Source: Candidatus Omnitrophota bacterium (GTDB lineage: Bacteria; Omnitrophota; Gorgyraeia; VGKH01; JBHPFN01). From it: a stretch of 64,000 nucleotides of DNA. Every line of letters begins with the position of its first letter. Positions within the stretch are counted from its first letter, which is position 1. The notes below the pieces were generated by a model that worked only from the letters and a program-made list of their open reading frames with translations, did no database searches and was not told the DNA's origin. Where the stretch lies: contig JBHPFN010000002.1 of assembly GCA_042571725.1 (NCBI GenBank), positions 14,030-78,029 of the forward strand, written 5' to 3'. Position numbers and translations under genes: made by a program. This document shows positions 6,263 through 63,067 of this stretch, in pieces.

Positions 6263-6281
6263 ATAGATGAAGCATTGAATG

Positions 6282-7527: not shown

Positions 7528-7782
7528 ATGGGATTAGAAAAATTAACAGAAATGGAAAGAAAAGAAATTGAGTATTTTAGGAAATCAATTAAAAATTCTG
7601 TTATTGCTGGAGTTATTATGCTTGTTGTAGGTTTTGTCTTACACACGACGGCTATATTGACGAAAAACGCACAGCTGTCAATCGGTACTCCCGTATTAAT
7701 GATTATGGGAACCGTGTTTGCAGTTAGGGCGATGGAAAGCAATAAGTGGATAAAAATTATTGATATACTAACAAAGAATTGA
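7528..7782 (+). CDS. Small two-TM hypothetical membrane protein
   Basis: AAGGAGG lies 9 nt upstream of the ATG at 7528 (the track starts at the GTG at 7525). Two hydrophobic segments. Confidence 0.6.
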   Translation: MGLEKLTEMERKEIEYFRKSIKNSVIAGVIMLVVGFVLHTTAILTKNAQLSIGTPVLMIMGTVFAVRAMESNKWIKIIDILTKN

Positions 7783-7811
7783 TTTTCAGCAATAGTCATA
7801 GAGGAGGCAGG

Positions 7812-9506: not shown

Positions 9507-9508
9507 TC

Positions 9509-43952: not shown

Positions 43953-44339
43953 ATGAACGCATATAAACGAAAGAAAGAAAAAGACAGCCTCGATTTTGAA
44001 ATTGAGTTTTTTGAAAAACTCTTACGAAGAAGGCCGGAGTTTATCGAGGTGCTGCGCGCTCTCGGGGATGCGTATACTCAGCGGGGATATTATGCAAAGG
44101 GGCTTGCGGTTGATAAGAAGTTAGCTCAGCTTCGGCCGGATGATGCGCTTATATTCTATAATCTTGCCTGCAGCTATTCTTTAATGCGGGAGATCGAACG
44201 TTCTTTAGAGGCCATTACTAGGGCTATCGAGTTAGGGTACGACGATTTTACTTTTTTACATAACGATGCGGATTTAGAGAATCTACGCGCAGACATTCGT
44301 TTCCGCGACATGATGTCAAAACTTCAACTGAAGCTGTAA
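43953..44339 (+). CDS. Small TPR-like repeat protein
   Basis: TPR-like helices (ALGDAYTQRGYYAKGLAVDKKLAQLRPDDALIFYNLACSYS). Confidence 0.65.
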   Translation: MNAYKRKKEKDSLDFEIEFFEKLLRRRPEFIEVLRALGDAYTQRGYYAKGLAVDKKLAQLRPDDALIFYNLACSYSLMREIERSLEAITRAIELGYDDFTFLHNDADLENLRADIRFRDMMSKLQLKL

Positions 44340-46319: not shown

Positions 46320-49133
46320 GTGCTTTGTCTCAGAAAAAATATATTTTACTTCTGTTTAGCGTTATTCTGCATAAGCCCTTATGCGCATGCCGATGAAGTA
46401 CCTTCTTATTCTATCGATTGTAAAGTAGACGTAGCTTCGCATACCTTACGCGCGCACGAGAGAGTTGTCTTTACCAACCCCGTTGATCACCCCATCCAAG
46501 AGCTCTTTTTTCACATCTATCCTAACCGCCATTTTACCGAGCAGGAAAAGCAGTTTATCACCCGCTATGCCGGATACTTTAAGATGAATCCTTTTCCTGA
46601 GGGATTTCAAAGCGGTAGCTTTACCATCCACTCGGTGACGCAGAACGCAGAGCAGTTAGATTTTGAAATCACCTTAGAAGATAAAACGATACTTAAAGTA
46701 ATATTGCCTGAGCCGGTAGCTGCGCATGAAACTGTTGAAGTAGAGATCGATTTTAGCGCACGCATTCCTCATTCGTACGGGAGATTCGGCTGGCATGAAA
46801 ACATCATCAGCTTAGCGCGATGGTATCCGCTTCTTTCGGTTCTCGACGAAGAAGGTTGGCACAATTACCCCTTTTATCCGTACCATCAACCTTTTTTCGC
46901 CGAGGCAGCAACCTATAACGTCAATCTCACGGTTCCAACCGAGCAGATTATCGCACACACCGGATTGCTGAAAAATACTACAGAACACAACGACGGCACC
47001 AAGACCCTTTCGATCGAAACAGAGTTGCCGGTGCGCGATTTTACCCTTACGCTAAGTCCGGACTACCGTGTTTTTTCTTTAGAGCAAAACAACGTAAAAA
47101 TTAATTCCTACTATTTACCGGGTGACGAATTCTACGGAAAACAGGCAGCCCAAAACGTTGCCACCCTCATGGATAACTATAGCCGGCAGTTCGGAGATTA
47201 TCCCTATCGAGAATTTAACATCGCACCTGTTTTTTTAGGATACGGAGGCAATCAGGCTTCAAATATAATCTTGATAGATACCCGCGCCTATACACTGCCG
47301 AAGTTTTTGATCCGCTATTTCGATTTTCTTATCTCGCATGAAGCCGGGCACCAGTGGTTTTATAATATGGTAGGCTCTGATGAATACAAAGAAATGTGGA
47401 TCGACGAGGGGATTAATTCCTATTTCATCTCAGAATATTTAGAGGAAAAGTACGGGCCCGATGCTCAGGTGATGGTTTTACCAAAAGGCTTTAAGCACTT
47501 GATTCCGAATTTTTCATTCGAAAACGGAAGGATCATGCGATATATGTTTGTAGCCAAAAACGGATTGGATAGACCCGTGCTAGGAGAGCTTTCAAGCTTT
47601 CAAGAGCCCAGCAGTATATTTACGCTCGCCTACGGCAAGGGGTCGCTGGTGATGCAGATGTTGCGTTCGCTGGTAGGCGAGGAAACTTTTCAGAGCATTA
47701 TGAAGCGTTATTTTCAAGATTACGCATTCAAAAATATAAGCGTAGCTGATGTGGTTCGCATTGCCGAAGAGGAAAGTGCCCAAGAGCTAGATTGGTTTTT
47801 TGATCAATGGCTCTACACGGATAAGACCTGTGATTACGCAATAACCGAAGTGCGCAATAACACTATCACCGTTGAAAACCGCGGCCAGATTATCATGCCG
47901 GTAAAAACAACCATCGCCTTTTCCGACGGCACTACCAAAGACGACTATTGGGACGGACAGGGAGATGCAAGGCACATTGAGGCGGATGGTTCTGGTGTTA
48001 TCAGAAAGGTCATCGTCGATCCGGACAGTGCGCTTTTAGATATTGATAGGACAAATAACCTCTGGCCGAGAAGCTTAGAAGTGCAAGCAGTGCCACTTTA
48101 CTTTTTTGCTTACGAGATTCCGGTATTCCTCTCGCACGATTCATATAGTTTAATATATGGACCAGAAGTTCGAAATGGAGGTTTGGGGATAAGAGCAACG
48201 CTTCAGAAACCTTTTGATAATATCATAAGTCTTTCAACCACGTTTGATGTTAATTCGAGCGTTTTCAAGGCGGTGTTAGGTTTTGAGCAGAAGAATATTC
48301 TAAACACATTGCTTTCTGCAGGTATCGAGGTATTTAAAGACGAAGACCCGCACGGAAAAAACGAAGATTTAGACGGTGGCAAGGTGTATATCCGCCGGGA
48401 ACTGTGGCCCGCGCGCTACGGCTTGACAGAAATCAATGACCATGTAACACTGTATTTATTGCGCAATAGGAAGTTTGAAGGAAGCCTGATTGCATCCGGT
48501 AAAGAAGACCCCGAAGGTATCTCGTATAAGAGAAAGCATGAGGCAATCGTAGGCTTAGATTTTAGTTTTGATCGTGCCGGGCCGTATTTTGATCCGGAGG
48601 TCGGCTACCGGGTAAAATCAACCATTGAACACGCGGATCATTTTATGGGAGGCAAGGAGGCTTTTTCGCGATGTTCGGTTGATGTTAGTAAATACGTTGC
48701 ACTGCCTTTGGATCAAAAGCTCGCGTTTCACCTTAAGGTCGGCTGGGGATTTCCGTCGGATAAGAATTTATACGAACTGGGAGGCAATGAGAGCCTGCGC
48801 GGTTACGGCCATAAGGCATTGCGCGGTTCGCGAGTATTGCTGGGCAGCGTTGAATATCGATTTCCCATATGGAAAAATATCAACACGCGATTTTTAGATA
48901 ACACGATTACACTCCAGAGCCTTCATGGAGCGGCATTTTATGATGCGGGGAGAATTTGGCACGCGGCGTTTAGCGAGAACGGTTTAAAACACGATGCGGG
49001 CTTAGGCATAAGAGCACATATTGATATTGCCTCTTTTTTAGAGAAAATTATTCTGCGGATTGATATCGCTCAGGCAATCGATGAGCCGAAAGAAGATCCG
49101 CACGTATGGTTTGGCATAAGCCACACATTTTAA
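46320..49133 (+). CDS. M1-family zinc metallopeptidase fused to a C-terminal Omp85/BamA-type (surface antigen D15) beta-barrel
   Basis: GTG start and signal-like N-terminus. HEAGH-X18-E gluzincin motif at about 47337. The barrel-like C-terminus has LGGNESLRGY, ...GAAFYDAGRIW, GLGIR, RIDIA and a terminal ...FGISHTF (aromatic last residue). Confidence 0.75.
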   Translation: MLCLRKNIFYFCLALFCISPYAHADEVPSYSIDCKVDVASHTLRAHERVVFTNPVDHPIQELFFHIYPNRHFTEQEKQFITRYAGYFKMNPFPEGFQSGSFTIHSVTQNAEQLDFEITLEDKTILKVILPEPVAAHETVEVEIDFSARIPHSYGRFGWHENIISLARWYPLLSVLDEEGWHNYPFYPYHQPFFAEAATYNVNLTVPTEQIIAHTGLLKNTTEHNDGTKTLSIETELPVRDFTLTLSPDYRVFSLEQNNVKINSYYLPGDEFYGKQAAQNVATLMDNYSRQFGDYPYREFNIAPVFLGYGGNQASNIILIDTRAYTLPKFLIRYFDFLISHEAGHQWFYNMVGSDEYKEMWIDEGINSYFISEYLEEKYGPDAQVMVLPKGFKHLIPNFSFENGRIMRYMFVAKNGLDRPVLGELSSFQEPSSIFTLAYGKGSLVMQMLRSLVGEETFQSIMKRYFQDYAFKNISVADVVRIAEEESAQELDWFFDQWLYTDKTCDYAITEVRNNTITVENRGQIIMPVKTTIAFSDGTTKDDYWDGQGDARHIEADGSGVIRKVIVDPDSALLDIDRTNNLWPRSLEVQAVPLYFFAYEIPVFLSHDSYSLIYGPEVRNGGLGIRATLQKPFDNIISLSTTFDVNSSVFKAVLGFEQKNILNTLLSAGIEVFKDEDPHGKNEDLDGGKVYIRRELWPARYGLTEINDHVTLYLLRNRKFEGSLIASGKEDPEGISYKRKHEAIVGLDFSFDRAGPYFDPEVGYRVKSTIEHADHFMGGKEAFSRCSVDVSKYVALPLDQKLAFHLKVGWGFPSDKNLYELGGNESLRGYGHKALRGSRVLLGSVEYRFPIWKNINTRFLDNTITLQSLHGAAFYDAGRIWHAAFSENGLKHDAGLGIRAHIDIASFLEKIILRIDIAQAIDEPKEDPHVWFGISHTF

Positions 49134-49143
49134 TATTGAGCGT

Positions 49144-49863
49144 ATGAAAATTCGATCACTGTTATTGTTGTTTACCATTGCTATTACGCTTTTTTCTGCT
49201 GCATATTTTGTATTCGCGGGAGTCGATGCATATTCTCGTTTGAGAGAGGAAATGGTGGAGAAGCAGATCAAAAACAGAGGTATAAAAGATGCAAATGTGC
49301 TTTCGGCGATGCGCACAGTGGAGCGGCATCGGTTTGTGCCGAAGAGCCGGAGGCTCTTTGCATACGCAGATTCAGCACTTCCTATAGGAGAAGATCAAAC
49401 TATCTCCCAGCCCTACATTGTTGCGCTTATGACCGAGGCACTGCGTCTTAAGAAAGGCGATAAGGTCTTAGAAGTCGGCACAGGTTCGGGATATCAGGCA
49501 GCAATCTTGGGAGAATTCGTCGATCAAGTCTATACGATAGAAATTATCTGTTCTCTGGCTAACCGCTCAGAGAAGCTTTTGCAGGAGCTTGGGTACTCTA
49601 ATATACACGTGAAGTGTGGCGATGGATATTTAGGCTGGCCTGATCAGGCATCCTTTGATGCGATAATCGTAACCTGCGCGATTGATGAAGTTCCAGGCCC
49701 TCTTATAGAACAATTAGCCGAAGGCGGACGCCTGGTTATTCCCTTGGGCCCCCAAGGCTATCAAAATTTAACGCTCATAGAAAAGAAAGACAATCAAATT
49801 ACCAGATCATTTATTACAGGGTGTAGATTTGTGCCCATGACCGGCGATAATGTTGTTCAATAA
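49144..49863 (+). CDS. pcm: Protein-L-isoaspartate O-methyltransferase with an N-terminal hydrophobic (signal/anchor) extension
   Basis: V..AM..V.RH.FVP......AY.D.ALPIGE.QTISQPYIVA.MTE.L......KVLEVGTGSGYQAAIL. Confidence 0.85.
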   Translation: MKIRSLLLLFTIAITLFSAAYFVFAGVDAYSRLREEMVEKQIKNRGIKDANVLSAMRTVERHRFVPKSRRLFAYADSALPIGEDQTISQPYIVALMTEALRLKKGDKVLEVGTGSGYQAAILGEFVDQVYTIEIICSLANRSEKLLQELGYSNIHVKCGDGYLGWPDQASFDAIIVTCAIDEVPGPLIEQLAEGGRLVIPLGPQGYQNLTLIEKKDNQITRSFITGCRFVPMTGDNVVQ

Positions 49864-51381: not shown

Positions 51382-53940
51382 TTAGGAAACAGGCTGAGGC
51401 GTCAATGCTTCATTATGGTGATTAAAGTAATAGTCAGAATCCGGCACCGCTAATAAAATGCTATCAAAGAATCCTGGTAGCTCTCCCGGCGGTAATGTTG
51501 ATGGGTCAGATGTATCGTAATTGTCTTCGTATTCGTAGATATTACGGTTGTTCCACGGGTCTTCAGAAGCCATATCATGGGGCCACCCAAGAAGGCCATC
51601 GCCTCTGCACAGTTTAGCAACCCCTGCGTGCGTAGGGTATTTGGTGGCAAACGCATCCGGGCCACCTGGGGCGCAGCTGCGCACATGATCCTTGTCAATC
51701 GCTGGCCACTTGTCGTTCGGCCACCCTGCCCATTTGAAGTTGTCGTCCGGCAAGGTTACAAAGGCGCCTACCGTCAGTTTTTGCTTACAGCCAGTCGAGG
51801 GAGGGCACCAGTCTTCCAATACCGTAGGCGGATAGGCTGAATAGCCAATAATCGAGACGTAATATGCATGATCAGCAGTTACGCCCGGTGTCATGGTACC
51901 TGCCATTTCATCTTGCCAGGAAGTAGCAAAATCCCCGTCTCCATCCCAATAGTCGGCAGTCGGCTCCCTGCTACCGATGCAGCCCGGGCCTCCTTGGGTT
52001 TCGTCGCAGTCTAGACTCGGACTATAGTCATCAACTACATATGGCAAGTTGGGATTATGGAGTAAGTTCGGTAGGCCGTCAGGGGCATCTGTTTCGAGCC
52101 GCTGCATTTCACTTAAGAAGGTACTTGATAAGGTATGGGTCGTTTGGGCAGAGATCACCGCAGAGGGTTGCCATTTAGCCCCAGTATTATAGTTCCCAAA
52201 AAGATAGCAGTTTCTCTCGCCAACGGTTGTAAGCGGACCGCTTAGATCTTCTGCGTTGTCAAGTCCAACGTCAAACTCAGAGTAAATAATACCATTGTCC
52301 GGCCAGATATTTACACCGCCTGAACCCAGTTTTCCGAGATCGAGCGTTATCACCTCATCTTTTTTCAACCAGCTGTTAACATCGACGAAAGATTCCGTTG
52401 TAGCGATTGTTACGCCCTTATATGTGTAGTCACCATTTCCATCAGGACAGATTTCGATTTTTGACCCTCCCCCTGTCGGGTTTATCTCCAGCATAGGTTC
52501 TCCTGCGCCGGTGCACTCCAACGGGCCTGCTTCAGCAATATACATGCCGTCGTCTTTAGCCTGATTGCCGTAGGTCTGCGCATTAATCTTAAGAGGACTA
52601 ATATGGTGCGCCTCGGTAAGGCTATCTTTGATTATCCCTGTTAAATTATTCTCGTCAAGCCACGTTGTCCAAGCATCGGTCTGCTCTACAGAATGCAACG
52701 ATTTGCTCAGTGTTGTAATTTTACCGTCTTGAAGTCTTGGCCAATGACACTTAGTAGCTCCACACGGCCTTCCATTCCAGGACTGATGATACACATTATA
52801 GTCCCATGGGTCATCAAGCATGTTTGGTATCTGTATGATAGGGCCTCCATCGGTATTTATATCAGTGTGCAATTCGGTTAATGGTTTTGAACCGTCTGCG
52901 TATATATAATAGTCTTCAATGGTATAAAGCTCCGGGAAGGGGGTATTGCCCGGCGCAAGCAATGCATTTTCCTGAGGGATGTAACAGTTAGAAAAGCTTC
53001 CCATGCAGGGTACATACTCTTGATTAGTAGTTGCTGCCCGAGGATTGCTAGGATTAAATACTGGATAGTCAGGATGCACAGGCGACCCATCGTTGAGCAT
53101 AAAAAGACCTCGTTCCCCTCCAGCGGTAAAACCATCCACCCAGTTATAATGTCGATATTCAGGTTCGGTGATCGGCAGTTCTGTTCTCCAGTCCGGCCGA
53201 TACCAGAATAGTAAATCTTCCCAGGGGGGGGTAGTGGCAGAGATATCATTACCGTCTGCGTCATATCGAGGGGATCCCGCAGGTGGCAGAAACGGCTCGT
53301 TCCCGTACATAATATGTTTTGCGGAAGAGAGCTCTCTAATATCAATAATATCTACGCTATCCCATATCGTGAACACGTCGTTAGTATGCATCCTACCGCC
53401 ATTGGCGTCATAGGTTGTCCAACCAGCGTGTATTCTATAGGGAGTAAACCAGAAATATTCGTAGAGTGAAATAGCTGCTACTTTTGAAGCTAAAAGATAC
53501 GTATGGTCACCGTTGTTGCTTATGCCCCTGGATAAGATAATGAGTTGTTCGTCGATGGGGTCTTCGTAGACCTTAACCGAGAATGTTCCATTGAGGGCTT
53601 CGTATGCACCATGCGGAGATGAGGGGCGGTGCTCAGCAATGGTTGATAACGTAACGTCCAACGGGTCTGCTGTCTCATCGTAGTGCAGCACAGGAGGAAC
53701 CTGGCCAGTAATAACATTATGAGTTTGCCATATCTGTCCATGTTGAAGTATTTCGTAATACGCGCACTCGTATCCCATTTCCGCATTATATTTTGCGCTG
53801 AGCTTGTCGAGATTATATCTCATCACTATAGTTTCATGGACGCTCTTAGAAAATATCGCTGCAGAGAGGATGGTGAGCAGTATGAGGGCAGCGAATGTAG
53901 CCACGAGAAGAAATCCGTTTTGTTGCGTTAGACGTTTCAT
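51382..53940 (-). CDS. Giant PilX-N/GspK-like pseudopilin-family protein, paralog A (no partner pseudopilin upstream)
   Basis: ATG at 53940 lies 9 nt after AAGGAG (the track GTG at 53949 is rejected). N-terminus MKRLTQQNG|FLLVATFAALILLTILSAAIF with no Glu at +5, then ...AEMGYECAYYEIL (PilX_N-like). Shares YVPC.G.F.NCY.PQ, NIWP.NGIIYSE, PLTTV..NCYL.GNYN, QPSAVI, DYWDGDGD and TLPPGELPGFFDSILLAVPDS with three neighbouring paralogs. Confidence 0.8.
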   Translation of the reverse strand: MKRLTQQNGFLLVATFAALILLTILSAAIFSKSVHETIVMRYNLDKLSAKYNAEMGYECAYYEILQHGQIWQTHNVITGQVPPVLHYDETADPLDVTLSTIAEHRPSSPHGAYEALNGTFSVKVYEDPIDEQLIILSRGISNNGDHTYLLASKVAAISLYEYFWFTPYRIHAGWTTYDANGGRMHTNDVFTIWDSVDIIDIRELSSAKHIMYGNEPFLPPAGSPRYDADGNDISATTPPWEDLLFWYRPDWRTELPITEPEYRHYNWVDGFTAGGERGLFMLNDGSPVHPDYPVFNPSNPRAATTNQEYVPCMGSFSNCYIPQENALLAPGNTPFPELYTIEDYYIYADGSKPLTELHTDINTDGGPIIQIPNMLDDPWDYNVYHQSWNGRPCGATKCHWPRLQDGKITTLSKSLHSVEQTDAWTTWLDENNLTGIIKDSLTEAHHISPLKINAQTYGNQAKDDGMYIAEAGPLECTGAGEPMLEINPTGGGSKIEICPDGNGDYTYKGVTIATTESFVDVNSWLKKDEVITLDLGKLGSGGVNIWPDNGIIYSEFDVGLDNAEDLSGPLTTVGERNCYLFGNYNTGAKWQPSAVISAQTTHTLSSTFLSEMQRLETDAPDGLPNLLHNPNLPYVVDDYSPSLDCDETQGGPGCIGSREPTADYWDGDGDFATSWQDEMAGTMTPGVTADHAYYVSIIGYSAYPPTVLEDWCPPSTGCKQKLTVGAFVTLPDDNFKWAGWPNDKWPAIDKDHVRSCAPGGPDAFATKYPTHAGVAKLCRGDGLLGWPHDMASEDPWNNRNIYEYEDNYDTSDPSTLPPGELPGFFDSILLAVPDSDYYFNHHNEALTPQPVS

Positions 53941-54006
53941 CGTAATCACGCTCCTTATAAGTTTATGCGTATGTCCAAGCTCGGTATAACCTAAGCCTGT
54001 TTATAA

Positions 54007-56529
54007 TTAACTAGCGCTCGGACTCAGCTCTGGCGCATGGTGGTTAAAATAGTGTTCGCTATCCGGCACTGTTAAGCGAATGCTCTCAAAGTATCCCGGC
54101 AGTTCTCCGGGCGGTACTTTTTCCGGATCTGTTATATCATAGCGATCTTCGTATCGAAAGATATTACGGTCAGGGTGCGGTTTCATATAAGTCCAAGACC
54201 CGCCCCGCTCAGCGCCTCTGCACTTGTGTTGCGCTACTGCCTCAGGGTAGGCTTCAGCAAATTCCTCATCGTTGCAAAAGCGGAAATTTGTATAGTGCCA
54301 CGTATTATCAGGGTGTCGGTGCCGGAAGTTGTCTGCTTCCAAAGTAACAAAGGAGCCCACCATCTGCCGCTCGAAATTTCTCCAGTCTTCTAATAAAATC
54401 GGTGGGTTTCCCAGGTAGCTGACAATAGAAACGTAATATTCGTGGTCAGAGGTTACCTCCGGGGTCATTGTGTTTGCCATTTCGTGTTGCCAATGAGTAG
54501 CATCGTTATCATCTCCATCCCAATAGTCTGCCTCTGGACCAGTACCACCTGTACAGCCGTCTCCTCCCTGATCTTCGTGGCATGGCAGGGTCGTATAATA
54601 TCCGTCAGCAGCATAGGGGGTATTAGGATTATTTAGAAAGTTCGGCAAGCCATTAGGCGCTTCGGTTCTAAGCCGTTCCATTTGTTCTATAAATGTTTCT
54701 GAGAAGGTATAGGGGTGTTTTGCGGTGATTACCGCAGATGGCTTCCAGGCCTCCTCGCTATCACTATTATAATTTCCGAAAAGATAGCAGTTTTCTTTGG
54801 AAACGGTAGTAAGGGGCTCAGCGAGAATCTCTGCATTGTCTAAGCCAACATTGTACTCAGAGTAAATAATGCCGTTACCTGGCCAGGCATCCACAGTGCC
54901 TAAGGCTTCAAGGTCGAGCTTCACCATATGTTCTTCGCGCACGGTTCTCACATCGATAAAAGAGTAACGTTCTGCAATAGCTTGGCCGCCATATTGATAC
55001 GTGCCGTTTTCTTCAGGGCAAATGATCTCTGCGCCTCTTTGAATTACTGGTATTTCATCTTCTCCGTAATGTTCCGCGCACTCACCGCTACTTAAATTTA
55101 CCGTCCTAATATACATACCGTGGTTAATAGCCTGATCAACATAGGTCCGATTATTGATTCTAATGGGAGTGATATGTTCTGCACCGGTATTTTTGTCTTT
55201 GAGGATATTATATAAGCTATTGTCATTGAGCCAGGATTCCCAGGCAGCCTTCTGTTCTGTGGAATGCAGTGCTTTGGTAGGTACTGTAACGGAACCAGAT
55301 TGAGGGTTAGGGTAGTAAACCGTTCCGTTTGGAGTCCACTGTCCATTTGATGACAGATTAAACAGATCGTAGTCCCATTGCTGATTAAGCATGTTGGGAA
55401 TCTGAATATCTTCACCTTCTCTGTCGCCTATATATGGCTTTATCTTTGCGTGCTGGTGATGTAATACCGTTTCATCTGCGTCCTCTCCGTAGATATAATA
55501 GTTTTGCACAGTGTAGAGCTTTTGATTAATCAGGTGTTCCGGGTGGCCGTGCGCGAGTACTTCATTTGCCTCAGGCAGATAACAGTTATTAAACTCTCCT
55601 TCGCAGGGTACATAGATTTGATTAGTGGTTGGTGCCGGTGGATCCTCAGGATTATATGCAGGATAGTCCGGATTCGACCCATCGTTATACATATACAGTT
55701 TATATTGCATTCCCCCTGCGAGAGAACCGTCATTTCTGTTGTAGTGTTGATTTCTATCGAGGGGTTGAGCAGAAACAAAGGGCGGTCGCCGATTCCAATA
55801 TATTTCTTCCCAGGTAGGGGTTTCGTGAGAAACGTCAATCCCGTGCGCATCATACCGTGGAGAGCCCGGAGGCGGTACAAATGCACCGTGCGAGTAGGAG
55901 ATGTGTTTTCCTGCGGAGAGCTCCGCAATCTCATAAAATCGTGCATTGTTTTGAAAAAGCAATTCGTCGTTTGTGTGCATCTTGGCACCACTCGCTTGAT
56001 AGGTGGTTGAGCTTACAGCCCATTTATAAGGGGTGAATCTGAAGTATTCGTAGAGTGAGGCTGCCGCTACTTTTGCAGCTAACAAATAGGTGTAGTTGCC
56101 ATCTTCACTTGTGCCTCGGGAGAGGATGATGAGCTGGTGGTCAACAGGATCCATGTATACCTTGACCAAAAACCTTCCATTGAGTGCCTTGTATCCTTCC
56201 GCGGGGTCGTGTTCAGCAATATGCGAGAGTTTAACATCTAACGGGTCCACGATGTCTTCGTTGAGCAGTAACAATGGATCGCCTGGGCTTTGTTCGGCGT
56301 TGAGATAATGAGTCTGCCATTGCGAACCATGCCGCAGTATCTCATAATAGGCGCACTCGAATCCTTTTTCCGCATAATATTTTGCGCTGAGCTTGCCGAG
56401 ATTGCGCTTCATCGTAGTATTTTCGTGGACACTTTTGGCAAATATCGCTGCAGAGAGGATGATTAATAGTATGAGGGCAGCGAACGTAGTCAGCAGTAAA
56501 AAACCATTTTGTTGCGTTAGCCGTTTCAT
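54007..56529 (-). CDS. Giant PilX-N/GspK-like pseudopilin-family protein, paralog B
   Basis: ATG at 56529 after AAAGGAG. The N-terminal 70 aa are nearly identical to paralog A, and the DNA at 56440-56529 closely matches 53850-53940. Confidence 0.8.
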   Translation of the reverse strand: MKRLTQQNGFLLLTTFAALILLIILSAAIFAKSVHENTTMKRNLGKLSAKYYAEKGFECAYYEILRHGSQWQTHYLNAEQSPGDPLLLLNEDIVDPLDVKLSHIAEHDPAEGYKALNGRFLVKVYMDPVDHQLIILSRGTSEDGNYTYLLAAKVAAASLYEYFRFTPYKWAVSSTTYQASGAKMHTNDELLFQNNARFYEIAELSAGKHISYSHGAFVPPPGSPRYDAHGIDVSHETPTWEEIYWNRRPPFVSAQPLDRNQHYNRNDGSLAGGMQYKLYMYNDGSNPDYPAYNPEDPPAPTTNQIYVPCEGEFNNCYLPEANEVLAHGHPEHLINQKLYTVQNYYIYGEDADETVLHHQHAKIKPYIGDREGEDIQIPNMLNQQWDYDLFNLSSNGQWTPNGTVYYPNPQSGSVTVPTKALHSTEQKAAWESWLNDNSLYNILKDKNTGAEHITPIRINNRTYVDQAINHGMYIRTVNLSSGECAEHYGEDEIPVIQRGAEIICPEENGTYQYGGQAIAERYSFIDVRTVREEHMVKLDLEALGTVDAWPGNGIIYSEYNVGLDNAEILAEPLTTVSKENCYLFGNYNSDSEEAWKPSAVITAKHPYTFSETFIEQMERLRTEAPNGLPNFLNNPNTPYAADGYYTTLPCHEDQGGDGCTGGTGPEADYWDGDDNDATHWQHEMANTMTPEVTSDHEYYVSIVSYLGNPPILLEDWRNFERQMVGSFVTLEADNFRHRHPDNTWHYTNFRFCNDEEFAEAYPEAVAQHKCRGAERGGSWTYMKPHPDRNIFRYEDRYDITDPEKVPPGELPGYFESIRLTVPDSEHYFNHHAPELSPSAS

Positions 56530-56562
56530 CGTAATCACGCTCCTTTGTAGCAGCAAGGCCTG

Positions 56563-57324
56563 CTAGTTTCTTAATGCGACTGAAGAAGTAAGAACCAAAG
56601 AAAAAACTCCTCCTAATATCGATGACTTTGATGCCGTAACGGTTATAGTAATAAAATCAGGGTTTTCATCTTTTGGATTTCCTTCTTGGTCGAAACCTTC
56701 CAATACCATACTTTCAATATTATCAGCGATTACGGTTATATTGTAGTCTCCTTCGCCGCCGAGCTCTTGTGCAAAGGCAGTGCCTAAGAAAAACTTCTTG
56801 AGAAACGACATCCAACAGTCGATAGGACAGTTGAAAGGGTCTTCAGGCGCAACGCAATCATCATCGCCGCAGTCGTCCTGCGTGGTTGTATCTCTTATCC
56901 TTACCAGCCTCCCCAGGTGGGTAGGTGAGAAGTTTGATGAAGGAACAAGATAGATAATATCGTTGTTCAAAAAGTTATCGCCCCCCCACTTAAGTTGTCC
57001 GGCAGGGTCTTCCAGGAAGTAGGAGCCTGCATGATCATGAGCAGTGGTTTGAGGAGTTTGAAATCTGACAAGATTGCCACTACACGGATTCCCGGGTACA
57101 TCAACGCACGCTTGAATTGTTACACGACTCGGTTCAGATTTTTCTAACTCCATAATAAGCTTCTCCAGGCCAAAGCGCGCCTTCTGTTGTAGTTCAACAT
57201 TGATTGAGCTTCTTATCCAGGTGTTTCGTCCGATAATCACCACTCCAGCGACGATGCCAATCAAAAAGGCCCCCACTATTATTGTTGCGAGCGCTTCCGC
57301 TACGGTAAATGCCTTCTTATTCAT
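56563..57324 (-). CDS. GspJ/PilW-like pseudopilin with an internal Cys-rich insert
   Basis: I prefer the ATG at 57324. MNKKA|FTVAEALATIIVGAFLIG has Phe at +1 and Glu at +5 but Ala at -1. C-terminal SSVALRN. The insert DDCGDDDCVAPEDPFNCPIDC is at about 56812-56877. Confidence 0.8.
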   Translation of the reverse strand: MNKKAFTVAEALATIIVGAFLIGIVAGVVIIGRNTWIRSSINVELQQKARFGLEKLIMELEKSEPSRVTIQACVDVPGNPCSGNLVRFQTPQTTAHDHAGSYFLEDPAGQLKWGGDNFLNNDIIYLVPSSNFSPTHLGRLVRIRDTTTQDDCGDDDCVAPEDPFNCPIDCWMSFLKKFFLGTAFAQELGGEGDYNITVIADNIESMVLEGFDQEGNPKDENPDFITITVTASKSSILGGVFSLVLTSSVALRN

Positions 57325-57346
57325 GCTTTTTCTTTCCTTTTCACCT

Positions 57347-59836
57347 TTACCCCCCGCTGGGGACAACCGGACTATATTCTGGCAAGTGGTAAGTAAAAGC
57401 GTGTTCAGTATCCGGTACAGCTAATAATATCGTATCAAAGAAACCCGGCAGCTCTCCGGGTGGCAAAGTAGCTGGATCAGTGACATCGTAGGTGTCCTCA
57501 TATTCGAACGAGTTGGCGTCTCCTACTGGTAATATGCCAGTCAGGTACGGGCTAGGCCAGCCGGGGTATTGCGAGGCGCGACAGGGTGCGCCAGGATAGT
57601 TTTCGTCTATGTATGCGCATGTGCGTGCTTTATCCCAGTCTAAATTCGGCCAGGATGAATTGGGCGCTTCCTGCCAGTCAAAGTTATCCTCCGGCAAATT
57701 GATAAAGGCTCCTCGTACATTTCTTGAATAGCAACTACCCTGTTGACCTTCAGGGTCAGGGCACCACCGTTCCAATACATGAGGCGGATAGGCTGCCCAG
57801 CCGATAATAGAGACGTTATAATTATAGTCTTGATCTACCGCGGGTACTCTTGTCGCCTCTGGCGCTTCATCCTGCCAATCAGTATTAGGGTCACCATCAC
57901 CGTCCCAATACGGTTCTTCTGGGTTCGCTGGATCATAGCCATTGAGTTCATAAGGGTAATTAGGGTTATTTAAGGTGGTAGGCAGGCCGCCAGGGGCAGC
58001 AGCTTCGGCCGCATGGGTATTGGCAAAGAAATTTTCTGAGAGCGTATAGACTCTTTCAGGTGATATTACTGCCGAAGGCTGATAGCCGCTACTGTTATAA
58101 TTGCCCACAAGGTAGGCATTCTTATAGGAAACAGTAGTAAGGGGGTCCTCGAGAAACGATGCATTGGTCAAGGCGATGTTTTCCTCAGAGTAAATCAGGC
58201 CATTCTCAGGCCATATATTAGCGTAGCTTGAATTTATTTTTTCAAGATCAAGCTTAATGACCTCTTTCTCCAGGAGACTGTTTACATCAATAAAAGTATC
58301 GATTGCAGCAACCTCAACACCATTAAATTCATACTTTCCGCCCTTAGGGCAGATTATTTTTGTTCCGGATTTTGTAGTTGACCTTATTGCGAGTGCATTA
58401 TCTGTACACGATTTGTCTGGCGCAATATACATACCCAAAGCCAGGGCTTTATTAAAGTAGGTCTGCGCATTGATTTTAAGAGGAGAGATATGGTGTGCAC
58501 CGGAATTCTTATCTTTTACTACTTCTAATAAGTTATTGGTATCGCGGAAAAACTCCCAGGCTGCACGCTGCTTCACCGTATGAAAAGTGTTTACTTCTAT
58601 TGTAACCGGAGGATCATCAGGATTTGGGTAGTAAACTGTGCCTACCGGAGACCATCTTCCGCCGGATGATTCGTGGTATAAATCCCAGTCCCATTCGTTT
58701 TCAAGACCCTCAAAAAGATTAGGGATTACTACTTCCTCAGCGACGTTGAGCGGCTTGATTCGACAAAAGCCGCGGCGTTCCTCCCACACAGCTAATTCCT
58801 CACCATATATTGGATAGTCAATATATTTATACAGGTCGGAGTTCTTTTTAAGATGTCCTGCTGCCAGTTCCTCGTTTAACTGAGGCAGGTAGCACTTGTT
58901 AGCAAATGTACCCGCTTCTGTGCCTTGGCAGGGTACATACATCTCATTGCCTTCACCCGCAGGCACTTTGTTATCATAATCGGGGTTTTCCATATATAAT
59001 CCCCTCTCCATGCCGCTGACTACCCCGTCGGCTTTATTAAAATATTGATTTTCATCAAGGTTCATCGGGGTTTGCCAGGGATCGCGCATCCAGTATATGA
59101 TCTCTTCCCAGGGGGGCGCGCCAGAGACTTCATTTCCATCCGAGTCATATCGTTTAGCTCCCGGAGGCGGTAAAAACGTCTGTTGATGATAGGCGATGTG
59201 GCCTGCTGCAGAGAGTTCTGCGATATCAAGAAACTTGTTGCCATCAGCGATTATTATGTTTTTGTTGGTATGTATCTTGCCGCCATTGGCTTGAAAGGTG
59301 GTCCACCACGGGAATATTGTCTCAGGGGTAAACCAGAAATGAGAATAGAGCGATGCAGCTGCAACTTTATTCACGAGAAGATAGGTAGCGTTGCCATTAT
59401 CACTTATTCCCCTGGAGAGGATGATAAATTGATCGTCAGCCGGATCTTGATATACCTTGACAAAAAAATCTCCTGTTTTTGATTGATATGTGCCAGCAGT
59501 TGCATCATATTCAGCGACGTCTTGGAGTATCACATCGAGGTCGTAGCCGGCTTGGACATCCGCCATGTTGTGAAGAAGGTAAGGATCGCTGGGGAGTCTC
59601 TCTGGATCAAGCAGGTGCGTTACCCAATCAGATCCGTGGAACGTTAGTTCATAATAGGCGCATTCATATCCCATTTCAGCATTATATACCGCTGTGAGCT
59701 TGCGCAAATTTCTTTTCACCATTGCATTTCCCTGAACGCTTCTGGAAAATATCGCAGTAGAAAGCATAGTGAGTGCGACAAGAGCTATAAGCACGCCTAT
59801 GAGAAGAAAGCCTTTTTTTTCAGAACGTTGTTTCAT
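57347..59836 (-). CDS. Giant PilX-N/GspK-like pseudopilin-family protein, paralog C
   Basis: I prefer the ATG at 59836 (MKQRSEKKG|FLLIGVLIALVAL...). Same conserved motif set as A and B, including ...TLPPGELPGFFDTILLAVPDT. Confidence 0.8.
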   Translation of the reverse strand: MKQRSEKKGFLLIGVLIALVALTMLSTAIFSRSVQGNAMVKRNLRKLTAVYNAEMGYECAYYELTFHGSDWVTHLLDPERLPSDPYLLHNMADVQAGYDLDVILQDVAEYDATAGTYQSKTGDFFVKVYQDPADDQFIILSRGISDNGNATYLLVNKVAAASLYSHFWFTPETIFPWWTTFQANGGKIHTNKNIIIADGNKFLDIAELSAAGHIAYHQQTFLPPPGAKRYDSDGNEVSGAPPWEEIIYWMRDPWQTPMNLDENQYFNKADGVVSGMERGLYMENPDYDNKVPAGEGNEMYVPCQGTEAGTFANKCYLPQLNEELAAGHLKKNSDLYKYIDYPIYGEELAVWEERRGFCRIKPLNVAEEVVIPNLFEGLENEWDWDLYHESSGGRWSPVGTVYYPNPDDPPVTIEVNTFHTVKQRAAWEFFRDTNNLLEVVKDKNSGAHHISPLKINAQTYFNKALALGMYIAPDKSCTDNALAIRSTTKSGTKIICPKGGKYEFNGVEVAAIDTFIDVNSLLEKEVIKLDLEKINSSYANIWPENGLIYSEENIALTNASFLEDPLTTVSYKNAYLVGNYNSSGYQPSAVISPERVYTLSENFFANTHAAEAAAPGGLPTTLNNPNYPYELNGYDPANPEEPYWDGDGDPNTDWQDEAPEATRVPAVDQDYNYNVSIIGWAAYPPHVLERWCPDPEGQQGSCYSRNVRGAFINLPEDNFDWQEAPNSSWPNLDWDKARTCAYIDENYPGAPCRASQYPGWPSPYLTGILPVGDANSFEYEDTYDVTDPATLPPGELPGFFDTILLAVPDTEHAFTYHLPEYSPVVPSGG

Positions 59837-59869
59837 GAACATCATATCCTTCGCAGGTAGAGCCCCCGG

Positions 59870-60526
59870 CTAGTTCCTCAACGAAACTGAAGAAGAGAGG
59901 TTAAACCTAAACGCCTCTCCGATATGCGATGGCTTCTCTACCAGAACAGTAATCTCTACATAATCAGGATTTTCTTGTGTATCTTCGCCAGCATAATCAT
60001 AGCCTAGAAATCCTATGGCACTAACACGGTCAGCGATTACGGTGATAGCGTAATCGTCTTCATTCTCAAACTCAACTGCTACGCCTTCTTTTTTGACCAT
60101 TCTTACCAGCCTACCTTGGTGCTCAGAAGAAAAGTTGCTACGAGGCACCATGTAGATAGTCTCCTCGTTTAATCTGCCATCAGCTCCCCATTTGATTTCT
60201 CCGGCAGGATCTTCCAGAAAATACGTTCCTGCAATAGGGTCGTCGGTTACTTGGGGGGTTTGAAATCTAATCAATTGTCCTACACAGGTATCATCCATTT
60301 CATTTATGCACGCTTGGATAGATGCATAGCTTGCGTCAGATCTCCTTAATTCCATCCCTAGTTTTTCCAGGCAATGGTGTGCCTTCTGCTGCAGTTCAAT
60401 AGAGGCAGAATTTCTTATCCAGGTGTTTCGTCCGACAAACACCGTTCCAGCGACGACGCCAAGTAAGAAAGCTCCAATCATTATTGTTACGAGCATTTCC
60501 GATACGGTAAATGCTTTTTTATCCAT
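59870..60526 (-). CDS. GspJ/PilW-like pseudopilin (shortest paralog, no insert)
   Basis: MDKKA|FTVSEMLVTIMIGAFLLG, C-terminal SSVSLRN. It starts 5 nt downstream of the stop of paralog D. Confidence 0.8.
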   Translation of the reverse strand: MDKKAFTVSEMLVTIMIGAFLLGVVAGTVFVGRNTWIRNSASIELQQKAHHCLEKLGMELRRSDASYASIQACINEMDDTCVGQLIRFQTPQVTDDPIAGTYFLEDPAGEIKWGADGRLNEETIYMVPRSNFSSEHQGRLVRMVKKEGVAVEFENEDDYAITVIADRVSAIGFLGYDYAGEDTQENPDYVEITVLVEKPSHIGEAFRFNLSSSVSLRN

Positions 60527-60531
60527 CGTTT

Positions 60532-63036
60532 TTATCCTCCGCCTCCTATAACACCTGGACTGAGTTCAGAAGGATGGTGCGTAAAATCATAATCCGAATC
60601 AGGTATTGCTAAAAATATACTATCAAAGAAGCCGGGCAGTTCTCCCGGGGGCAATGTGGAAGGGTCTTGGATATCATAGCGAATTTCAAATTCGAACCAA
60701 TTGTCATTACCAATGGGAATTTTAGAGCCCATCTCATGTGGCCAGCCCCGGCTCTGCTCACCGCGACAGGGAGCGTTAGGATAGTTGGCAATCATAAAGT
60801 CGTCATCGCATCTGCGTGCTTTATCTTGATCAAAATCCGGCCAGCTTGTACTAGGGTAGTTGTTCCATCTAAAGTTGTCTTCTTCTAGATTAACAAACGC
60901 ACCCACGACCTTTCTTTGAACACAAACGCCGTCGTCTTCTTCACACCAGCTTTCCAGCACATACGGCGGATAAGCATCGTAGCCAATAATTGACACATTG
61001 TATACGTGGTCATCGGTAACCAGCGGTGTCATTGTGCCTGCCTTTTCATCTTGCCAGGAATTATTTGGGTCTGGATCGTCGTCCCAAAAGTCATCTTCAG
61101 GACCGGTACCGCCTATGCAACCATCGCCTCCTTGGGAGGGGTCGCAGTCTAGGTCTGTGCTAAACTCATCCTCCACATAAGGATAGTTTGGATTATGCCG
61201 TGGATTAGGTAAGCCATCAGGGGCTACAGCTTCTACCGCCTCCATATTTGCAAAGAAATCAGTAGAAAGAGTATATGTCTTTTCTCCTCCAATGACCGCG
61301 GATGGTTGCCAGTCGTCCTCTAGTACATTATAGTTTCCAACCAGGTAGCAGTTTTCTTTTGCGACCGTAGTAAGCGGTTTGGCCAGAATCGCCGCATTGG
61401 TTAAGGCAATATTATGCGTAGCATAAATAATCCCGTTTTCTGGCCAAATATTCGCATCGCCTAAGTTTCCCAGGTCAAGCTTTATGACCTCTTTTACCAG
61501 GGCGCTGTTTGGATCCATAAAATCATCGAGCGCAGCAATCTCAAAGCCTCCGTAGCTATAGACTCCATTCATATCAGGGCAGACCTCTACTTGTTCTATT
61601 TCTGGATCTCCATCTATATTGGCGTTTATCGTTATCTTGAGCGTCGTATCTCCTCCTCCTACGCAAGACAGTTCTCCATCTAACGCTATATACATACCGG
61701 CAGTTTGGGCACTATCGAAGTAAGTTGTGGAGTTAATTCTTAATGGAGTGATACGATTGGCCTCGGTATTGTGTTCTTTGATTACTCCTTGAAACTCATT
61801 GTCAGTTACCCAGTCGGACCAGTCAGATAGTTGGTGTTCAGAATTTGTAGTTTTAACCGGTATGGTAATTGGACTCCCGGGGGGTGGATAGTAATACGTG
61901 TTGCCGCCGTAGGGCCTACCTTCGTATGTTAATCGGTGTAAGTGATGAGGCCATGATGTATTCATAAGCGAAGGAAGTTTTACAGTGGTTGCGCCTTCAA
62001 ACTTACGAATTTGCGTATGGGCATATCTCAATCCAAGGCTCGTATTGCCAGATATATTATAGCCTTCATACTGATACAGCTCGGGGTTAATCTTAGTAAC
62101 ATCATGACCCCCTGCCAATACCGGGTTTGGTTGAGGCAGGTAGCAATTAGCAAATGCGCCTTCGCATGGTACATACGCGTCCCCTTCGGGCATCGGGTTA
62201 TCCATATACAATCCACCCTGCATTCCTGAGACGCGACCATCTACATTGTTGTAGTATGGATATATGTCAAGATCCATCGGGTCTTTCCAAGGATCGCGCA
62301 ACCAGAATACGATATCCTCCCAGGTTATGCCGGCGGGCATGGGGAGGGGAGCGCCACCTTCATCATAGGCTTCAGTAATATCAGGCGGCAGAAAAGTCGA
62401 TTGCCGATAGAAAATATATCCTGCGGCAGTAAGTTCTTTTACATCAAGAATCTTTACGCCGTCATACAATGCTAAGTTTCCATTAGTATGTATCTTGCCG
62501 CCATTGGCTTCATAAGTAGTCCACGACGGCCAGCTGTCTTCGGGATTAAACCAGAAGTATTCGTAGAGAGACGCTGTTGCTACTTTCGAAGCTAAAAGAG
62601 CGGTATCGCCGTCAGCGCTGATTCCTCTTGAGAGGATAATGAACTGTCCATCAATAGGATCTATATAGATCTTGACAAGAAATTCACCGTTGAGCGCCCG
62701 GTACGCTCCGTCGTATGCTCCCGGGTCGTGGTCTGCGATACTTGATAAGATAACATCACGCGCTACTCCGCCATTGAGCAGCAGAAGAGGGTCATCTCCA
62801 GTTTCAGCAACGGAATGGGTAACCCAGTACGTGCCGTGACGCACCAGCTCATAATGGGCACACACACCGCCCATTTCGGCATTGTACATGGCGCTTAGTT
62901 TGCTAATATTCTTTTTCACCACCATGTTTTCATTGATGCTTTTGGCAAATATCCCCCCAGCAAGGACGGTGAGCACTATTAACGTTATAAATGTGCCGAT
63001 GAGAAGAAATCCCTTGTGTTGAGCAATGCGGTTCAT
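60532..63036 (-). CDS. Giant PilX-N/GspK-like pseudopilin-family protein, paralog D
   Basis: ATG at 63036 lies 9 nt after AAGGAG (MNRIAQHKG|FLLIGTFITLIVL...). Same motif set, including ...TLPPGELPGFFDSIFLAIPDS. Confidence 0.8.
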   Translation of the reverse strand: MNRIAQHKGFLLIGTFITLIVLTVLAGGIFAKSINENMVVKKNISKLSAMYNAEMGGVCAHYELVRHGTYWVTHSVAETGDDPLLLLNGGVARDVILSSIADHDPGAYDGAYRALNGEFLVKIYIDPIDGQFIILSRGISADGDTALLASKVATASLYEYFWFNPEDSWPSWTTYEANGGKIHTNGNLALYDGVKILDVKELTAAGYIFYRQSTFLPPDITEAYDEGGAPLPMPAGITWEDIVFWLRDPWKDPMDLDIYPYYNNVDGRVSGMQGGLYMDNPMPEGDAYVPCEGAFANCYLPQPNPVLAGGHDVTKINPELYQYEGYNISGNTSLGLRYAHTQIRKFEGATTVKLPSLMNTSWPHHLHRLTYEGRPYGGNTYYYPPPGSPITIPVKTTNSEHQLSDWSDWVTDNEFQGVIKEHNTEANRITPLRINSTTYFDSAQTAGMYIALDGELSCVGGGDTTLKITINANIDGDPEIEQVEVCPDMNGVYSYGGFEIAALDDFMDPNSALVKEVIKLDLGNLGDANIWPENGIIYATHNIALTNAAILAKPLTTVAKENCYLVGNYNVLEDDWQPSAVIGGEKTYTLSTDFFANMEAVEAVAPDGLPNPRHNPNYPYVEDEFSTDLDCDPSQGGDGCIGGTGPEDDFWDDDPDPNNSWQDEKAGTMTPLVTDDHVYNVSIIGYDAYPPYVLESWCEEDDGVCVQRKVVGAFVNLEEDNFRWNNYPSTSWPDFDQDKARRCDDDFMIANYPNAPCRGEQSRGWPHEMGSKIPIGNDNWFEFEIRYDIQDPSTLPPGELPGFFDSIFLAIPDSDYDFTHHPSELSPGVIGGGG

Positions 63037-63067
63037 GGCAATCATCTCCTTTTGTTGTGGTCGCAAG

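Follow-up and report, generated by a model that had tools for sequence, protein, structure and literature searches.

An M1-type zinc peptidase fused to an Omp85-type outer-membrane barrel in Omnitrophota

Omp85 proteins are central machines of outer-membrane biogenesis and type V secretion, and their N-terminal domains define their role. What, then, could be the role of an Omp85 barrel whose N-terminal part is a peptidase? This question is raised by one gene in a stretch of 64,000 nucleotides (the window) from a Candidatus Omnitrophota bacterium (assembly GCA_042571725.1, contig JBHPFN010000002.1, positions 14,030 to 78,029 of the forward strand). A first-pass annotation, made from the letters of the window, had described its product as a single protein of 937 amino acids (aa) with a signal-like N-terminus, an M1 zinc metallopeptidase and a C-terminal Omp85 barrel of ∼330 aa ending in Phe. 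Our analysis bore out this description: the fusion is genuine and conserved in Omnitrophota, an outer-membrane protein with a zinc peptidase where POTRA domains are usually found. On the basis of sequence and predicted structure, we consider it (with a probability of roughly 0.6) to be an active M1-type zinc peptidase that is anchored by its own Omp85 barrel and most likely faces the periplasm. All features of the gene and its immediate upstream neighbors are listed in Table 1.

Integrity and architecture of the fusion

The open reading frame (ORF) begins with GTG and comprises 937 codons plus the stop codon. Its product was identical (100% identity over 100% coverage) to an NCBI gene model (P0001) from a Candidatus Omnitrophota metagenome-assembled genome (MAG). 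A domain search, which had been proposed as a check in the first-pass annotation, placed each half above its curated Pfam threshold: aa 333-497 matched Peptidase_M1 (PF01433) with 82.9 bits (cut-off, 27.7; E = 3.2e-23) and aa 688-937 matched Omp85 (PF01103) with 55.5 bits (cut-off, 24; E = 8.8e-15). NCBIfam models gave sub-threshold matches only, to PepN, LTA4H, BamA, TamA and TamL. When the fusion was used as a query against 5.8 billion proteins, 378 matches were found; the best 120 of these were nearly all full-length (two were shorter, 833 and 899 aa), every one of them carried both Pfam domains, and their identity to the query was 47-64%. An AlphaFold2 (AF2) model of the full-length protein, built from an alignment of 117 sequences, had a mean predicted local distance difference test score (pLDDT) of 91.8 and a predicted template modelling score (pTM) of 0.91. 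In addition, a scan of one genome per Genome Taxonomy Database (GTDB) species with family-specific patterns confirmed at least 537 relatives, of which the best 80 loci were examined.

A trivial explanation of such an architecture would be that a peptidase gene and an Omp85 gene had been merged by a frameshift or a chimeric assembly, and the region between 48.0 and 48.2 kb had been singled out beforehand as the place where two genes might be joined. However, more than 117 full-length homologs with 46-64% identity, from independent assemblies and sources, were colinear with the protein, the match was uninterrupted at the 80 genomic loci, and the same architecture was present in complete genomes of cultured Gemmataceae. 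Alignments of 30 and of 117 full-length homologs ran through the domain junction without a break; unless stated otherwise, conservation counts given below refer to the latter alignment of 117 close homologs. The residues of the junction itself (aa 560-627) were also conserved, with D567, P568, L573, D574, D576, N579, N580, W582, V591, Y594, Y598, P601, Y609, G614 and P615 being nearly invariant. With the junction preserved in 117 homologs and at 80 loci, a frameshift or assembly join was ruled out, and an artefact of this kind is scarcely conceivable. The GC content along the gene was flat (0.44-0.46). Promoter and terminator scans yielded counts at chance level and were uninformative.

Table 1. 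Features of the fusion gene and its upstream neighbors (positions in the window)
Feature	Residues	Position	Strand	Basis
M1 peptidase-Omp85 barrel fusion, whole gene	1-937	46320..49133	+	ORF list, identity to P0001, Pfam, AF2
Sec (SPase I-type) signal peptide, MLCLRKNIFYFCLALFCISPYAHA before DE, ending AHA/DE	1-24	46320..46391	+	sequence, AF2
M1 domain I, N-terminal beta-sandwich	25-265	46392..47114	+	AF2 (all-beta), Foldseek
M1 catalytic (thermolysin-like) domain, helical in AF2	266-500	47115..47819	+	PF01433, PDB phmmer
GGNQA at the GXMEN exopeptidase-motif position, Gln312 for Glu	309-313	47244..47258	+	alignment
Zinc site HEAGH-X18-E (H340, E341, H344, E363)		47337..47408	+	sequence; 117/117
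Tyr438, transition-state-stabilising Tyr of M1 enzymes, motif YGKG	438	47631..47633	+	alignment; 117/117
Small all-beta domain, M1 domain III equivalent, not POTRA	501-566	47820..48017	+	AF2, Foldseek
Conserved 42-aa linker, DPxxxxLDIDRTNNxWP ... VPLYFFAYEIPVFL	567-608	48018..48143	+	AF2, alignment
16-strand Omp85 (BamA/TamA-type) beta-barrel	609-937	48144..49130	+	PF01103, AF2, Foldseek
Loop-6 lid-lock motif LRGY, between strands 11 and 12	826-829	48795..48806	+	alignment, AF2
Strand-13 motif FYDAG (FxDxG)	873-877	48936..48950	+	alignment
C-terminal strand 16 and beta-signal HVWFGISHTF, terminal Phe		49101..49130	+	alignment
Syntenic small cytoplasmic TPR protein, 128 aa (context only)		43953..44339	+	Pfam TPR, NCBIfam TPR_END_plus
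Upstream gene, 11 nt from the fusion: PilZ, hydrophobic segment, coiled coil, C-terminal region of about 350-360 aa; 648 aa		44362..46308	+	Pfam PilZ, E = 1.3e-8

All family members had a hydrophobic N-terminus ending in a small-x-small motif. In the AF2 model, the signal region formed a helix (aa 5-17) with low pLDDT. For a homolog in Tuwongella immobilis (GMBLW1_23740), the signal is predicted as Sec/SPI. Thus, the fusion would be exported by Sec and cut by signal peptidase I after AHA24. A lipoprotein anchor was considered and rejected, because the family has no conserved lipobox and its consensus ends in an SPase I-type site.

The peptidase module and its exopeptidase motif

A phmmer search of the PDB with the fusion found M1 enzymes only (aminopeptidase A, the cold-active aminopeptidase ColAP, ERAP2 and IRAP). 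Foldseek matched the N-terminal half of the model to IRAP, ERAP1 and ERAP2 (E = 5e-27 to 1e-23) over ∼590 aligned columns, which correspond to M1 domains I-III; the barrel would therefore stand at the position of the helical domain IV. The small domain before the linker contained six strands and no helices in AF2 (aa 506-566). As had been proposed in the first-pass annotation, the gluzincin zinc site was intact and it was invariant in the alignment. The Tyr of LAYGKG, which is kept in all clades, aligned with the SYSKG/YVKG Tyr of ColAP (3cia) and aminopeptidase A (4kx7). Mean conservation, measured as the frequency of the major residue, was highest in the catalytic domain (0.69), followed by the linker (0.66), domain I (0.64), the barrel (0.62) and domain III (0.49). 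The protein therefore belongs to peptidase family M1 by its profile, the HEXXH-X18-E site, the catalytic Tyr and the fold of domains I-III, and departs from it in the GXMEN motif.

Compared with canonical M1 enzymes (PepN, APN, ERAP1/2, IRAP and LTA4H), with which it shares domains I-III, the zinc site and the catalytic Tyr, the fusion differs in several respects. First, it has GGNQA for GXMEN. Second, the domain I motif of the TQFEP...FPCFDEP type is replaced by the family-specific invariant motif GWHNYPFYPYHQPFF (aa 179-193), in which W180, Y186 and H189 are invariant. Third, it lacks the helical domain IV and has a membrane barrel after domain III. Finally, it is predicted from its signal peptide to be exported. 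The closest sequence relatives of the M1 module were short standalone enzymes of ∼500 aa, such as that of Thermotalea metallivorans (WP_068557914.1; E ∼1e-100 against the family profile). Like the fusion, these enzymes are without domain IV and are equipped with a signal or anchor at the N-terminus, but they keep GGMEY and have no barrel. A two-domain M1 peptidase of Deinococcus radiodurans (PDB 6a8z/6iff), which is listed with the short standalone M1 enzymes, likewise retains the Glu of GXMEN and has no barrel.

The Glu and Asn of GXMEN have been implicated in binding of the substrate N-terminus and in transition-state stabilisation, and M1 subgroups without the full motif have been documented (PMC2241622). 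GGNQA lies 31 residues upstream of HEAGH (motif range 22-38) and, in alignments with solved M1 enzymes, falls on GGMEN in the cold-active aminopeptidase (3cia) and on the GAMEN region in aminopeptidase A (4kx7); only the Gly residues of GXMEN were kept. Position 312 was Gln in 110 of the 117 homologs and Glu in the other seven, G310 was invariant and the position of Met in GXMEN was variable. Examination by clade revealed GGMEY or G(A)MEY in the standalone enzymes and Latescibacterota-type proteins, NGNEC in Gemmataceae, GGNE[STA], GGIES and GGHES in the divergent Omnitrophota-type fusions and GGxQ[SMA] in the clade of the fusion itself. The replacement of the GAMEN Glu by Gln, to which the first-pass annotation had drawn attention, thus stands for the close relatives, but it is confined to one sub-clade; Glu is retained in the remaining fusion clades and in the standalone enzymes. 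As far as these alignments indicate, the change is real and conserved but derived within that sub-clade, and is not a trait of the architecture. The series from GGMEY through GGNE[STA] to GGNQ[SA] represents a natural experiment on the recognition of substrate N-termini by M1 enzymes.

Does the substitution leave an active enzyme? In mutagenesis studies, Glu-to-Gln mutants at GXMEN are severely impaired in LTA4H and aminopeptidase A, and canonical M1 enzymes are inactivated by the change. One may suppose that Glu312Gln has abolished peptidase activity and that the M1 module now does no more than bind peptides or proteins, as a periplasmic domain of an Omp85 protein. The replacement of the exopeptidase-motif Glu in 110 of 117 close relatives and the roles ascribed to this motif (PMC2241622) would be consistent with this idea. 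However, the zinc ligands, the general base Glu341 and Tyr438 were retained in 117 of 117 sequences, which is not expected after loss of catalysis, and the sister clades have kept the Glu. Thus, a pseudo-enzyme appears very improbable. The invariance of H340, E341, H344, E363 and Y438, together with the catalytic domain being the most conserved region, suggests that the fusion is most likely still an enzyme, that is, an active M1-type zinc peptidase. Since the Glu that anchors the free amino terminus of the substrate is Gln in this clade, its recognition of the substrate N-terminus, and hence its specificity, probably differs from that of a classical aminopeptidase.

The barrel, its orientation and possible functions

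Sixteen strands were predicted in two AF2 models, one of the full-length protein (strands across aa 609-933) and one of the barrel only, which completed the modelling of the strand count that had been suggested at the outset. Two long loops, one between strands 7 and 8 and the other between strands 11 and 12, represent L4 and L6, respectively. Lid-lock motifs of Omp85 proteins have been defined as (V/L/M)RG(F/Y/W) in loop 6 and FxDxG in strand 13 (PMC11358297). Both were found here: L826 and G828 were invariant, R827 was present in 116/117 and position 829 was Y, F or W, and in strand 13 F873 was invariant and D875 and G877 were each conserved in 114/117. In the C-terminal strand, W930 and the terminal F937 were each present in 116/117 and G932 in 112/117. 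The C-terminal 329 residues are thus predicted to fold into a BamA/TamA-type barrel, which would be inserted into the outer membrane via its terminal Phe beta-signal.

All of the top 50 Foldseek matches of the barrel-only model were TamA or BamA, with none of the FhaC type among them. TM-scores were ∼0.5-0.6, which understates the similarity because this model was built from a 12-sequence alignment and had a pLDDT of 72. The best matches of the barrel profile among PDB sequences were Fusobacterium nucleatum BamA (9ccg) and TamA. Pfam gave no match to the ShlB-type barrel (PF03865) or POTRA_2, that is, to the TpsB/FhaC type. On the basis of PF01103, the 16-strand barrel and the lid-lock motifs, the protein belongs to the Omp85 superfamily, although it lacks POTRA, a typical but not universal feature, and scored 57.4 bits against the NCBIfam Omp85_fam model, below its cut-off of 200. 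Compared with BamA and TamA, which are its closest structural neighbors (Foldseek E ∼5e-9) and share the 16 strands, the L6 (L/V)RG(Y/F) motif, the strand-13 FxDxG motif and the aromatic C-terminus, the fusion has no POTRA (five in BamA and three in TamA), falls far below the equivalog cut-offs and has an enzymatic N-terminus. No Pfam match to POTRA was found and the AF2 model contained no beta-alpha-alpha-beta-beta unit. A POTRA hidden in aa 500-608 was also excluded, as this region had no Pfam match and was modelled as an all-beta domain and a short linker. The linker had high pLDDT, with 29% of its columns at least 90% conserved.

Where, then, would the peptidase be located? The N-terminal 540 residues, comprising M1 domains I-III, would occupy the place of POTRA in other Omp85 proteins and of domain IV in four-domain M1 enzymes. 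The LRGY-bearing loop L6 is found between strands 11 and 12; by the usual Omp85 topology, strand 1 should therefore start in the periplasm, which would put the M1 module at the periplasmic face. Conservation pointed in the same direction: it was 0.74-0.81 in the periplasmic turns T1, T3 (13 aa, LWPAxYGLxxxNDH), T4 and T7 and only 0.43-0.53 in the extracellular loops L1-L3 and L7. The conserved turns and the linker probably form a surface on which the peptidase docks. The first-pass annotation had proposed tethering at the surface or in the periplasm, and the indirect evidence leans towards the latter. Our preference for a periplasmic orientation is based on the Omp85 topology, on these conserved turns and poorly conserved loops, on the lack of POTRA, on the structural neighbors all being BamA or TamA rather than FhaC, and on the presence of a canonical BamA in Planctomycetes that carry the fusion. 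With the peptidase located next to the inner face of the outer membrane, its substrates would be peptides or unfolded envelope proteins.

The closest precedent for the opposite orientation is PlpD, the type Vd patatin-Omp85 protein of Pseudomonas aeruginosa. Both proteins combine a signal peptide, an N-terminal hydrolase and a C-terminal 16-strand barrel of the Omp85 rather than the TpsB type in one polypeptide, and the barrel of the fusion might similarly export its own M1 passenger to the surface, perhaps for release, where it would digest extracellular or host/prey proteins. The standalone M1-module relatives in monoderms carry signal peptides or anchors and thus are extracytoplasmic enzymes, and a secreted protease would fit the host-dependent lifestyle proposed for Omnitrophota, which have been proposed as predators or parasites. 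However, PlpD has a POTRA between the barrel and its patatin lipase, which is exported and released, and all TpsB translocases have one as well. The fusion shows a three-domain M1 peptidase and a barrel without POTRA, so that the type Vd layout (passenger, POTRA, 16-strand barrel) is present only in part. To our knowledge, every Omp85/TpsB translocase has at least one POTRA, and its absence here argues against self-export. Furthermore, the linker of only ∼42 aa is confidently predicted and does not look like a flexible threading segment, the extracellular loops are poorly conserved whereas the periplasmic turns are conserved, the BamA/TamA-type neighbors have a lumen closed by a dome, and phylum-wide vertical inheritance with housekeeping neighbors is more in keeping with a core function in the envelope than with an accessory effector. 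Export of the passenger is therefore unlikely.

It should be noted that several observations weigh against an active, periplasm-facing peptidase. The conservation of loops and turns is an indirect argument for orientation. The standalone enzymes related to the M1 module act outside the cytoplasm, being either secreted or anchored, and an extracellular role would not be odd. PlpD is a precedent for the export of an N-terminal enzyme by a barrel of the Omp85 type. Activity of the fusion clade is not guaranteed, given the inactivating effect of the Glu-to-Gln change in canonical M1 enzymes. Finally, GMBLW1_23740 had zero intensity in all nine proteome samples and was not detected in any Tuwongella proteome fraction (PMC8567305 and its supplement).

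A periplasmic peptidase could also be more than a tethered enzyme. We considered a self-contained proteolytic machine of the outer membrane, in which the POTRA-less barrel would capture clients (nascent or stalled outer-membrane proteins, or surface proteins after export) by way of a gate or lumen resembling that of BamA and present them to the M1 site docked beneath, the barrel serving as a cap like domain IV of M1 enzymes. Such a machine would be a new functional Omp85 class coupling a barrel to proteolysis, core in Omnitrophota and present in Gemmataceae; at present it appears quite unlikely. A related proposal is that of an Omp85 machine with a built-in protease, whose BamA-like lateral gate engages the beta-signals of outer-membrane or surface proteins for processing or degradation by the M1 module and which, in its extreme form, acts as the main insertase of Omnitrophota. 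Features reminiscent of BamA are the lid-lock motifs, W930 and the conserved Gly932, which lies five residues before the C-terminus. The structural neighbors are all insertases, and within the phylum the gene belongs to the core and keeps its synteny. Periplasmic proteolytic quality control has also been proposed by Heinz and Lithgow for the 'Metallo' class of Omp85 proteins. On the other hand, the scores against the BamA (TIGR03303, 25.8 versus 297 bits) and TamA (NF047950, 17.9 versus 625 bits) models were far below the cut-offs, and gate opening and substrate engagement are purely conjectural. A point in favor of the proposal is that a barrel hidden Markov model and motif screen of the window and the 80 loci revealed the fusion as the only Omp85, and no BamA was found by Pfam among the large ORFs of the window; these searches covered one genomic region, so that the lack of BamA there says nothing about whole genomes. 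Planctomycetes that carry the fusion, including the Gemmataceae, have kept canonical BamA (PMC3422733, PMC8567305), implying that the fusion is an accessory Omp85 there. Considering all these points, a role as a gated machine of this second kind is improbable. A functional analogy to the quality-control idea is provided by BepA of Escherichia coli, a periplasmic zinc metalloprotease that works with BAM, an Omp85 machine; however, BepA belongs to another peptidase family (M48) and is a separate soluble or peripheral protein with TPR rather than a barrel fusion, and no homology is implied.

The fusion was also compared with published Omp85 classes. Heinz and Lithgow (2014) distinguished ten Omp85/TpsB subfamilies (BamA, TamA, BamA-like, Lipo, patatin-like, WD40, 'Metallo' with PF00149, noNterm, FhaC and Hmw1B), and a fusion with M1 (PF01433) is not among them. 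The first-pass annotation had stated that Omp85 barrels normally carry POTRA or patatin-type passengers, but enzymatic or propeller N-termini other than POTRA were already known from the 'Metallo', WD40 and noNterm classes. These share with the fusion an Omp85 barrel with a non-POTRA N-terminus and an uncharacterised function, and a quality-control role has been proposed for them; the fusion differs by its PF01433 domain and, unlike most of them, has a distribution in Omnitrophota that looks vertical with conserved synteny. It thus extends a known theme and is best filed as a further non-POTRA Omp85 subfamily, in which an intact M1 zinc peptidase replaces POTRA. Its description as functionally uncharacterised was upheld: no functional account of an M1-Omp85 fusion was found in the literature searched (Omp85/BamA with M1/aminopeptidase, Omnitrophota, Velamenicoccus and Planctomycetes), the only trace being a row in the Tuwongella proteome supplement. 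The names in use ('M1 family aminopeptidase', 'pepN_1' and 'BamA/TamA family outer membrane protein') are automatic and each covers half of the protein. Knowledge of orientation and substrates would show whether an Omp85 barrel can be a mere anchor for a periplasmic enzyme, a POTRA-free exporter of large folded enzymes or a device that couples a barrel to proteolysis.

Distribution, genomic neighborhood and other features of the window

The best 80 of the at least 537 loci belonged to Omnitrophota or to MAGs with placeholder labels that carried Omnitrophota-type sequence and synteny. An exhaustive profile search of 1.84 billion cluster representatives returned 3,250 proteins at E ≤ 1e-30, which fell into three groups: full-length fusions (∼20 representatives), numerous proteins of 880-1,050 aa whose strong match was confined to the M1 module, and standalone M1 proteins of ∼500 aa. 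According to Pfam and cluster names, distant long proteins were also M1-Omp85 fusions. Of these, P0152 stems from Gemmataceae and P0165 from Latescibacterota; a fragment of the latter bears the name 'BamA/TamA family outer membrane protein'. A search with P0152 gave at least 953 matches in Gemmataceae, including the cultured Zavarzinella formosa, Telmatocola sphagniphila (on a contig of 6.59 Mb) and Tuwongella. Judging from these sequences, the architecture is widespread and not rare, contrary to the initial impression that it was uncommon. The presence of a homologous version in cultured Planctomycetes (Tuwongella, Telmatocola and Zavarzinella) makes the fusion experimentally accessible.

Further comparison of the clades addressed their common origin. 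Between the DPD...NN.W junction and WFGI.H.F, the linker and barrel of the window protein were colinear with their Telmatocola counterparts (26% identity, E = 5e-35), and this colinearity makes a single fusion origin for Omnitrophota and Gemmataceae well supported at the sequence level. The alignment to the Latescibacterota protein was limited to the junction and the first strands (E = 1e-5), although the junction motif of the linker is common to the Gemmataceae and Latescibacterota fusions; the case for extending the single origin to this phylum is weaker. The Tuwongella protein (VTR98848.1, 'pepN_1'; ∼1,040 aa, 115.9 kDa) has the same architecture of PF01433 and PF01103 and a Sec/SPI signal peptide (PMC8567305, supplement), and the barrel of its clade is colinear with that of the window protein; it differs in its NGNEC-type motif, in which the Glu is kept, and in a more divergent barrel. 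A BamB paralog (bamB_4) lies two genes from 'pepN_1' in the interval GMBLW1_23720-23740 (PMC8567305, supplement file 3), which may be due to chance because the Tuwongella genome has 28 BamB paralogs.

Some relatives had unexpected labels or sequences. Many third-party annotation (TPA) MAGs labelled 'uncultured Planctomycetales/Planctomycetia bacterium' (L002, L006-L009, L012, L013, L020 and others) carried the Omnitrophota-type fusion with 45-64% identity and Omnitrophota synteny, and fusion relatives were also found in MAGs labelled Deltaproteobacteria (L037) and Marinimicrobia (L077, a 1.1-kb contig). These odd phylum labels probably reflect placeholder or mis-binned taxonomy. Two Omnitrophota MAGs contained full-length relatives (L079:7911-10640 and L080:1659-4475) that were only 28-29% identical to the window protein, with a well-conserved M1 module and a far more divergent barrel (62-71 bits against the family barrel model); they could represent a separate class-level lineage or a paralog.

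The fusion gene lies in a conserved same-strand block comprising an aminotransferase, a TPR protein, optionally a PilZ protein, the fusion and then Era. Among the 80 loci, the aminotransferase was found in 35, the 128-aa TPR protein in 50 and the PilZ protein in 37, and Era was located a few kb downstream in 38. This arrangement indicates vertical inheritance, and we propose that the fusion is a core component of the envelope in Omnitrophota that has been passed on vertically. Its gene is core and syntenic in this uncultured phylum, whose members are ultra-small and possibly host-dependent. The PilZ domain family includes receptors of cyclic di-GMP, and the 648-aa PilZ/coiled-coil protein could be an inner-membrane partner of the fusion. 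No relative of its C-terminal region was found in PDB or NCBIfam, and no TamB-like (DUF490) gene was present among the annotated neighbors of the fusion. On the other side, 10 nt 3' of the fusion gene, lies a gene for a protein-L-isoaspartate O-methyltransferase (PCMT; 49144-49863, + strand, E = 1.9e-65), which directly follows the fusion only in the window and in L001. Unusually for a repair enzyme that depends on S-adenosylmethionine and is normally cytoplasmic, this PCMT carries a hydrophobic segment in its N-terminal part (MKIRSLLLLFTIAITLFSAAYFVFA).

Two other regions of the window also deserve mention. An envelope-type cluster on the + strand (2220-11221) contains two TPM-domain proteins (one with TPR repeats and the other with PDZ domains), a 570-aa ORF without a Pfam match and a 771-aa PQQ_2/BamB-like beta-propeller protein (3947-6262). 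On the - strand, a tandem array (51382-63892) comprises four paralogous ORFs of 855, 849, 832 and 844 aa, which are 43-51% identical to each other and each start with a type IV pilin-like leader (...KGFLL(I/V)...). None of the four had a Pfam match, and the 855-aa ORF, the only one checked against NCBIfam, had no match there. They are interleaved with two pilin-like ORFs of 267 and 218 aa (48% identity) with a KKAFTV.E prepilin motif. The GC content was ∼0.50 at 51-52.5 kb and 0.44 elsewhere, and relatives of the 855-aa ORF were found downstream of Era in 7 of the 80 related loci. The array may be a diversified pilus-tip or adhesin cassette. At its upstream end, a 274-aa ORF (63068-63892, - strand) contains a Pretoxin-HINT domain (PF07591, E = 3.4e-19), and the C-terminal 83 aa of this ORF share 52% identity with the small pilin-like ORF located at 56563-57366.

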